Part shown: positions 62,755 through 63,972 of the stretch, one piece after another
How the letters are laid out: the number at the start of each line of letters is the position of its first letter
How positions within the stretch are numbered: the first letter of the stretch is position 1
Origin: Escherichia phage RudolfBernhard_Bas96
Reading direction: 5' to 3' (one strand)
Length of the DNA stretch: 64,000 bases
Sequence record: PQ850623.1
Program-made: the position numbers and the translations under genes
Notes under the pieces: model-generated
Told to the model about the DNA's origin: nothing
Seen by the model: the letters and a program-made list of their open reading frames with translations, nothing else
Database searches by the model: none

Positions 62755-63972
62755 TTAACTTAATGCATAGTCTGTTTCAAGAATGTCCTGCCAGAGGCTG
62801 TCATCCAGCTTACCAGCGGAGAACTCTTGTCCCAGTACCTGAGACAGGATGAAGCCCAGCAGGTCACTCTTAGCAATGTCAGACAGAATCTGATTGTACT
62901 GACGACGCAAGTCATTGCCATAGTTAGGGTGGCAACGGAAGCAGTCATGTACAGTCATTACAGGGAATGGTTTCTTAGGCATGGTATTGAGCGTAGCCAT
63001 GATTACATCTGTATCAACCAATGCAATCGTTACTGAGTCCAGATAATCAAAGATACGGGTAGACAGGAATCCCGACTTCTCATAGTTAGTCCACAGTGTG
63101 TTAACCATTTCATAGTTATCATTGGAGCCAACCATGTAATCACTGGTTCCTTCGCAGAGGGACTTAATATAGTTCACCTGGTTCATGCTGAAGTTACAAC
63201 GACGTAGCATCTCGCGTACCACCATCCCATCAATAGAGTGGGTGATGTTAGCAGATAGCATACGGGTCTTTTCTTCAGTACCCTGAACCATACGAGTGAT
63301 ATCGAATGGTTTACCTAAGAAGTTAACAGTCTGTACTTCAGGAACCATGACCTTAATGACAGCGTGGAAGTTGTCAGGCAGTACCCATACGTAACGGTTA
63401 GCATCCGGGTTGCCACATTGCAGTAAGAACTTGTTCAGTGCCCAAGGACCACTAGCAACAGTTTTCATTACATTCTCAAAAGTCTTGATACGGATACCTT
63501 CACCGAATACTTCTTTCGGCTTAGCTTCTGAACCATAGAATGCAGTCATAACTGCCTGCTTAGTATCACTACGTTTAATACGAGATGCTTCTCCAAGGAT
63601 GTCCAGCATCTTGTGGTAGATAACTGTGTAAGCATCACGACGTAATGGCTTACCATTCTCTCCCATGTAGTTAACTACGTTACACAGTTCAGCAGCAGAA
63701 CGGTCACCAGTCAGGCAAGCCAGTAACTGTAAGCCAGATGATGTAGCATCCAGAGCTACGGCATAACCGATAGGCTTACCGGCTTTCATATCTTTCCATG
63801 CGTTTACACCAGCGTAGAACAGCGCAGATTCTTCAGCTTCATCTACCAGATTGAACAGGTTAGCTTCATTCTCGTCGAACCAGCTAATACGTTCATCCCA
63901 TGTCTTCTTATCCAGACCGTAAGAGTTCGCAATATCAATTTTTAAATACTCTTTAGCTGTGAAAATCTGCAT
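62755..63972 (-). CDS. T7-like single-subunit RNA polymerase catalytic subunit (N4 RNAP II large subunit, gp16-like)
   Basis: Motif A ALDATSSGLQLL, motif B RSDTKQAVMTAFYGS, motif C VMTVHDCF; 405 aa, consistent with a split RNAP whose small subunit lies beyond the window. Confidence 0.7.
   Translation of the reverse strand: MQIFTAKEYLKIDIANSYGLDKKTWDERISWFDENEANLFNLVDEAEESALFYAGVNAWKDMKAGKPIGYAVALDATSSGLQLLACLTGDRSAAELCNVVNYMGENGKPLRRDAYTVIYHKMLDILGEASRIKRSDTKQAVMTAFYGSEAKPKEVFGEGIRIKTFENVMKTVASGPWALNKFLLQCGNPDANRYVWVLPDNFHAVIKVMVPEVQTVNFLGKPFDITRMVQGTEEKTRMLSANITHSIDGMVVREMLRRCNFSMNQVNYIKSLCEGTSDYMVGSNDNYEMVNTLWTNYEKSGFLSTRIFDYLDSVTIALVDTDVIMATLNTMPKKPFPVMTVHDCFRCHPNYGNDLRRQYNQILSDIAKSDLLGFILSQVLGQEFSAGKLDDSLWQDILETDYALS

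Follow-up and report, generated by a model that had tools for sequence, protein, structure and literature searches.

A gp16-type RNA polymerase large-subunit gene adjoining the end of a putative gp15.1-type homing endonuclease gene in a Gamaleyavirus-like genome

Introduction

One end of the analyzed stretch of phage DNA (64,000 nt in full length, hereafter referred to as the window) carries a minus-strand open reading frame with the palm motifs of a T7-like RNA polymerase (RNAP). This raises the question of whether the frame encodes one subunit of a split RNAP and, if so, where the gene of the missing part has to be sought. The best-studied precedent is phage N4, in which, by genetic and biochemical evidence, middle transcription depends on both gp15 and gp16 as well as on gp2, and for which the division of roles between the two subunits has been assigned (PMC4496689). 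A first-pass annotation of the window had proposed the N4 RNAP II large subunit and expected the partner gene immediately upstream, beyond the window edge. Here, we follow up both parts of this proposal.

Results

The 405-aa protein corresponds to N4 gp16

Reading of the open frames of the window returned a minus-strand frame at 62755..63972, running from ATG to TAA and encoding 405 aa. Its product aligned end to end with chain B of N4 RNAP II (PDB 6dt7_B, "RNAP2", 404 aa; aa 1-405 versus 1-404, E = 2.1e-191), with 279 of the 405 residues (69%) being identical to N4 gp16. The PHROG 2051 profile "RNA polymerase" was likewise matched over the entire protein (aa 1-405 on 401 profile positions, E = 5.7e-175), while the Pfam family RNA_pol (PF00940) scored 57 bits (gathering threshold 22 bits; E = 2e-15) on aa 7-148 only, i.e., profile positions 8-170 of 448. 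Amino acid identity to gp16 of G7C, PhAPEC7, PGN829.1, and ST4 amounts to 94.8-97.0%, and the nucleotide sequence of the gene is overall nearest to PhAPEC5 and ST4. The length of the large subunit is constant across dozens of phages.

Toward T7 RNAP, BLASTP aligned aa 9-143 with T7 residues 459-598 and aa 341-405 with T7 residues 810-883. Since the alignment spans only approximately T7 459-883, the protein represents the C-terminal half of the 883-aa single-subunit RNAP. N-terminal domain and thumb are absent, and inspection of the 405-aa sequence revealed no DxxGR motif. Judged by its sequence, the protein is the gp16 orthologue and thereby an ordinary large subunit of an N4-type heterodimeric RNAP II, a known and routinely annotated gene with a solved structure. 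In respect to this part, the first-pass annotation was right throughout: coordinates, length, and the palm motifs A, B, and C were borne out, the frame is indeed too short for a complete single-subunit RNAP, and the full-length alignment with N4 gp16, together with both profile matches and the motifs, places it in the polymerase family that had been named.

Catalytic motifs are conserved

The motifs (Table 1) were located by string search, the coordinates of motif C were verified in the nucleotide sequence, and the T7 landmarks were taken from the translation of T7 gene 1. Motif B reads RSDTKQAVMTAFYGS with the T7 counterpart being RSVTKRSVMTLAYGS; in direct comparison, 10 out of 15 residues are identical to T7 627-641, including the equivalents of T7 R627, K631, Y639, and G640. 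Motif C of T7 is LIHDSFGT. In addition, THSIDG (aa 244-249) resembles T7 VHSQDG, which contains H784, and the C-terminal DILETDYALS resembles T7 DILESDFAFA. The assignment of motifs B and C is based on such short collinear matches, direct comparison, and the N4 literature rather than on a single significant pairwise alignment. In a single local alignment with T7 RNAP, motif A fell into the correct place, but motif B was threaded wrongly through an insertion specific to T7; this alignment was consequently not used for motifs B and C. Taking the residue roles as described for motifs A, B, and C of N4 gp16 (PMC4496689), all catalytic residues are intact, including Y146, the equivalent of the ribose discriminator Y639 of T7.

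Table 1. Features at the g16 locus, in window coordinates.
Feature	Position	Strand	Remarks
g16 orthologue, RNAP II large (catalytic, palm and fingers) subunit	62755..63972	-	full-length homology
Motif A, VALDATSSGLQ, aa 72-82	63727..63759	-	catalytic D75; T7 D537 aligns to D75
Motif B, RSDTKQAVMTAFYGS, aa 134-148	63529..63573	-	R134, K138, Y146, G147
Motif C, TVHDCFRC, aa 340-347	62932..62955	-	H342 and D343 = T7 H811 and D812
Recoded tract, first 60 nt of g16	63913..63972	-	co-segregates with the upstream endonuclease gene
Shine-Dalgarno sequence AGGAG of g16	63979..63983	-	read from the sequence; 6 nt before ATG
Last 8 codons and stop of a putative gp15.1-type free-standing homing endonuclease gene	63974..64000	-	GYKWKLGA-stop; cut by the window edge
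Intrinsic terminator just past g16	62713..62748	-	11-bp stem GGCCTCATACC/GGTATGGGGCT, then T-run TTTTATTTTTT

Within the genus, g16 varies most at nt 781-1020 (window 62953..63192, approximately aa 261-340), where nucleotide identity is 37-70% to Bp4 and, in one bin, 68% to G7C. This stretch falls within the segment between the equivalents of H784 and H811, which extends over approximately 97 residues in comparison to 27 in T7. From its sequence, the variable stretch looks like a lineage-specific mosaic insertion.

The gene is continuous and has its own signals

The Shine-Dalgarno sequence of g16 sits inside the 3′ end of the upstream endonuclease frame, and an in-frame TAG four codons 5′ of the ATG fixes the start of the gene, so that a 5′ extension is not possible. 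Downstream, a strong terminator follows, with its stem spanning 62748..62723 and the T-run thereafter; terminators are annotated at the same spot after g16 in PhAPEC7 and SP5M. The frame runs uninterrupted through motifs B and C. An intron or insert within g16, as found in N4G2, Sz33, and Moonfish, was considered and excluded by the continuous frame in combination with an Rfam scan of the window that returned no intron.

A putative endonuclease gene ends one nucleotide before g16

Directly upstream of g16, a 27-nt open frame runs off the window, ending 1 nt before the g16 ATG. Its translation is identical to the C-terminus of G7C gp15.1. Within the 28 nt 5′ of the ATG, 27 match G7C, including the same TAA-G-ATG junction, and PhAPEC7 is unalignable there. 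Thus, the claim of a partner gene immediately upstream has to be given up: the frame at the window edge is the C-terminus of a gp15.1-type endonuclease, the gene of which should consequently separate the two subunit genes. Extrapolated from G7C, this gene of approximately 582 nt would fill positions ~64001-64555 past the edge.

G7C gp15.1 (193 aa) matched PHROG 1035 "endonuclease VII" (E = 1.6e-30) and the Pfam nuclease-associated DNA-binding module NUMOD1 (E = 6e-8). The Pfam search of this protein returned no HNH domain, its "HNH" label being the annotation of the depositors (putative HNH homing endonuclease). At a minimum identity of 86%, gp15.1-type endonucleases were found in six records representing four distinct phages, and the g16 region matched 58 phage records. 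All four carriers (G7C, ST4, PGN829.1, and Moonfish) possess an intact 193-aa frame with 86-100% identity. Other Gamaleyavirus genomes host different content at the gp15-gp16 junction, namely a divergent endonuclease of 204 aa (~32-33% identical) in HK2 and pSb-1, a 53-aa frame in PhAPEC7, PhAPEC5, and Bp4, and frames of 79-80 aa in VTCCBPA_322 and E20. An empty junction was found in none of the 11 Gamaleyavirus genomes inspected.

The gp15 partner gene is expected beyond the window

Searching the window by tblastn with five gp15 orthologues gave no match. This rules out a gp15 copy elsewhere in the window and places the partner gene outside of it, as the first-pass annotation had stated. In 11 out of 11 inspected Gamaleyavirus genomes, gp15 (271-272 aa) is encoded upstream of gp16 on the same strand and never directly adjoins it. 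The gp15 protein of ST4 matches 6dt7_A ("RNAP1") with E = 7e-118, and the gp15 proteins of the relatives carry DKRGR, representing the DxxGR motif, and end with KELVNED-stop. By extrapolation from G7C, the gp15 gene would be expected at ~64557-65375 in extended coordinates, approximately 0.56 kb past the edge. In searches for DNA continuing past position 64000, an exact look-up of the protein gave no record, exact-pattern scans of viral contigs retrieved G7C alone or nothing, and two metagenome scans gave no match.

PHROG 2166 (505 positions) was matched by G7C gp15 on positions 15-322 and by aa 7-101 of the window gp16 on positions 324-431. As this family spans both subunits, some of its members must cross the gp15-gp16 boundary, either being fused or being split elsewhere.

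Flanking sequences co-vary with the endonuclease gene

A free-standing homing endonuclease is expected to leave a carrier allele with an altered, uncleavable target and co-converted flanks. Comparison of g16 in 60-nt bins between three carriers and six non-carriers revealed such a pattern. In the first bin, identity reaches 93-95% with the carriers G7C, PGN829.1, and ST4 but only 58-72% with the six endonuclease-less genomes, whereas the later bins show ~90% identity or more to both groups, except for nt 781-1020 in some relatives. The changes in the first 60 nt are mostly synonymous (MQIFTAKEYLKIDIANSY versus MQLLTAREYLKVDIANNY). On the other side of the junction, carriers likewise show recoding of the final 60 nt of g15; HK2 and pSb-1 were left out of this g15 3′-end comparison, their genes being 3 nt shorter and their rows out of register. 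Recoded flanks tracking the carriers fit this expectation. The gp15.1-type endonuclease displays both a sporadic presence among close relatives and flanks co-varying with this presence. The recoded 5′ tract of g16 is, in terms of its sequence pattern, probably a cleavage-resistant or co-converted flank.

Genome context

In a megablast search, the region and 25 kb to its left were ~89-94% identical to G7C-like members of the N4-like coliphages (Schitoviridae, Gamaleyavirus). Relative to the orientation in which Gamaleyavirus genomes are usually given, the window is reverse-complemented, and it is collinear with the annotations of G7C and PhAPEC7. Synteny downstream of g16 is kept, comprising a gp16.1-like 65-aa frame, gp17 (decoration protein, a 277-aa frame with Ig-like domains), gp24 (AAA-ATPase, a 350-aa frame with an AAA domain), gp25, and dCTP deaminase. 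For window 39001..64000, no genome of the phage collection reached at least 95% identity over the 25 kb, the best being PhAPEC7 with 93.7%; the source may possibly be an undescribed Gamaleyavirus species. A PhAPEC5/PhAPEC7-like backbone in combination with a g15-g16 junction of the G7C/ST4 type characterizes the genome as a mosaic.

Three further loci were noted in the window. A 188-aa frame at 57456..58022 (-) matched Pfam HNH_3 (E = 1.7e-12), is 38% identical to the HNH frame within Moonfish g16, and by these matches adds a second gene resembling homing endonucleases to the middle region. At 34329..34413 (-), Rfam recognized a tRNA (RF00005, 54.4 bits), the acceptor, D, and T arms of which are canonical, with an anticodon arm of 24 nt where the RF00005 model has 11. 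ARAGORN reported no tRNA over the whole window, and the relatives are labeled tRNA-Ile, tRNA-Xle, or tRNA-OTHER at this spot; the locus may represent either a decayed tRNA or one whose anticodon arm is aberrant or interrupted. On the strand opposite to g16, a 3605-aa frame (21721..32538 (+), with a mechanical TTG start) presumably encodes, by size and synteny, the giant virion-encapsidated RNAP (gp50 orthologue). If so, of the three polymerase activities that make up the transcription scheme of N4, two would be encoded in the window.

Discussion

Considering all data together, we regard it as very probable that the gene encodes the large subunit of a G7C-like RNAP II whose subunit genes are non-adjacent, with a gene for a gp15.1-type endonuclease between them. 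In this enzyme, the gp16 orthologue would supply palm and fingers with the metal-binding aspartates D75 and D343, and K138 and Y146 of motif B would serve NTP binding and ribose discrimination. The N-terminal domain, the thumb, and DxxGR would be supplied by a gp15 orthologue of ~272 aa; with these elements residing on a separate polypeptide, the enzyme would be active only as gp15-gp16 heterodimer. Its templates, by analogy with N4, would be the middle (replication) genes, transcribed with gp1 and gp2 as cofactors, this gp1/gp2-dependent biochemistry having been established for N4 only (PMC4496689). The putative free-standing homing endonuclease gene would be positioned between the subunit genes, with its end 1 nt before the g16 start. 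Directly observed are the frame with its homology and motifs, the absence of gp15 from the window, the C-terminal end of the endonuclease frame, and the recoded 5′ tract; we infer that gp15 is present and where it lies, that a heterodimer forms and acts in middle transcription, and that the endonuclease is active.

The arrangement might instead follow N4 itself (gp15, a 47-nt spacer, gp16), so that gp15 would end right before g16 with only a short spacer. The edge frame ends with GYKWKLGA-stop and not with the terminal KELVNED of gp15 proteins, the 27 matches to G7C within the 28 nt before g16 point to another neighbor, and an empty junction did not occur among the 11 Gamaleyavirus genomes, making this arrangement extremely unlikely. 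We likewise attribute a practically negligible probability to the frame not being an RNAP subunit at all, but a fragment or pseudogene of a single-subunit RNAP or a member of another family A-like polymerase group. Such a view could draw on a length of less than half of T7 RNAP and on a Pfam match covering the first 148 aa only; the protein is nevertheless collinear from end to end with a crystallized, functional 404-aa subunit, its catalytic residues are intact, the same length recurs in dozens of phages, and the gene has its own Shine-Dalgarno sequence and terminator.

A different question is whether the endonuclease gene at the junction is complete. Homing endonuclease genes often degenerate once fixed, only 27 nt (8 codons) are visible here, and the junction content is highly variable within the genus, with frames of 53, 79-80, 193, and 204 aa. 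A decayed or truncated remnant, i.e., a pseudogene, would bring gp15 nearer than 0.56 kb. As the frame of 193 aa is intact in four out of four known carriers, and as the visible 3′ end, the stop codon, and the 1-nt spacing are perfectly kept, we consider a remnant quite unlikely and favor the full-length endonuclease gene between the subunit genes.

One may go further and speculate that the gp15-gp16 boundary is a long-lived homing site at which insertion of a free-standing homing endonuclease gene split an ancestral single-chain T7-like RNAP into the two-subunit RNAP II of Schitoviridae, in which case the window would preserve the "occupied" state of this site. How the heterodimer arose is described as not known (PMC4496689). 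Members of an endonuclease family with 33-39% identity are found at the same junction in phages of the G7C type, of the HK2/pSb-1 type, and in pVco-5, and in a G7C-like phage, a mobile insert that is not spliced out has been shown to divide the DNA polymerase into two parts that work. However, the heterodimer is reported for all but two of the surveyed phages encoding a virion RNAP (vRNAP), whereas the endonuclease occurs only sporadically; insertions generically land in gaps between conserved essential genes; and the junction of N4 is empty. A splitting of the ancestral enzyme by endonuclease insertion is speculative and, in our view, unlikely.

The gene as such is a routine component of all N4-like phages, known from crystallography and from genetic work over decades, and its detection matters little. 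In terms of annotation, the value lies in placing the window as a reverse-complement Gamaleyavirus genome with its end within the early/middle region. The endonuclease-occupied subunit junction is the only, mildly interesting angle: of the alleles of the g15-g16 junction, the genome has the less common one, which bears the endonuclease. In combination with the insertions of introns and HNH frames in g16 of relatives, this junction offers a convenient natural system for the targeting of conserved polymerase genes by endonucleases, and it could perhaps bear on how split polymerases arise.

Comparison with known systems

N4 gp16 (chain B, "RNAP2", of 6DT7, 6DT8, and 6DTA) has 404 residues in comparison to 405 in the window protein, shares the motifs A, B, and C, and is likewise encoded upstream of the gene for the gp17 decoration protein. 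In contrast to the 47-nt spacer separating gp15 and gp16 in N4, a putative homing endonuclease gene abuts g16 in the window. With G7C, ST4, and PGN829.1, whose gp16 is annotated as "RNA polymerase RNAP2 subunit A", the window shares the identical TAA-G-ATG junction, the same recoded first 60 nt, and, as far as visible, the order gp15, gp15.1 endonuclease, gp16; elsewhere, the window is marginally more similar to the endonuclease-less PhAPEC5 and PhAPEC7. T7 RNAP has counterparts of its D537 and D812, K631, Y639, H784, H811, and C-terminal tail in the window protein. T7 RNAP is one chain, whereas N4-type enzymes carry the N-terminal domain, thumb, and DxxGR on a second polypeptide.

Insertions into or next to the large-subunit gene are known from several relatives. 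Splicing was shown for a group I intron located at motif B of g16 (QAVMTAFYGSEAK) in N4G2 and Sz33, and the DNA polymerase of the G7C-like phage 10Gb is divided by an insert that is not spliced, giving two pieces that function (bioRxiv 10.1101/542787). Unlike the intron-interrupted g16 of N4G2 and Sz33, g16 of the window is continuous, with the putative endonuclease gene being intergenic and free-standing. Shigella phage Moonfish (3001..5186) has g16 as two frames of 343 aa (ending with TVHD) and 81 aa (with FRCHPNYG); a 214-aa HNH frame (PHROG 99) and ~290 non-coding nt lie between them, and the break is located exactly at motif C. It probably represents a group I intron at a site other than that of N4G2 and Sz33. 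In Vibrio phage pVco-5 (1551..5228), RNAP1 is followed by an endonuclease 39% identical to G7C gp15.1 and subsequently by a 150-aa RNAP2 piece, a 183-aa frame, and a 263-aa RNAP2 piece; in Acinetobacter phage XC38 (350..2424), the large subunit is present in two pieces around a 176-aa frame. Fragmentation of the large subunit near motif B seems to recur in other Schitoviridae genera, and g16 with its surroundings is a recurrent landing site of homing endonucleases and mobile elements.
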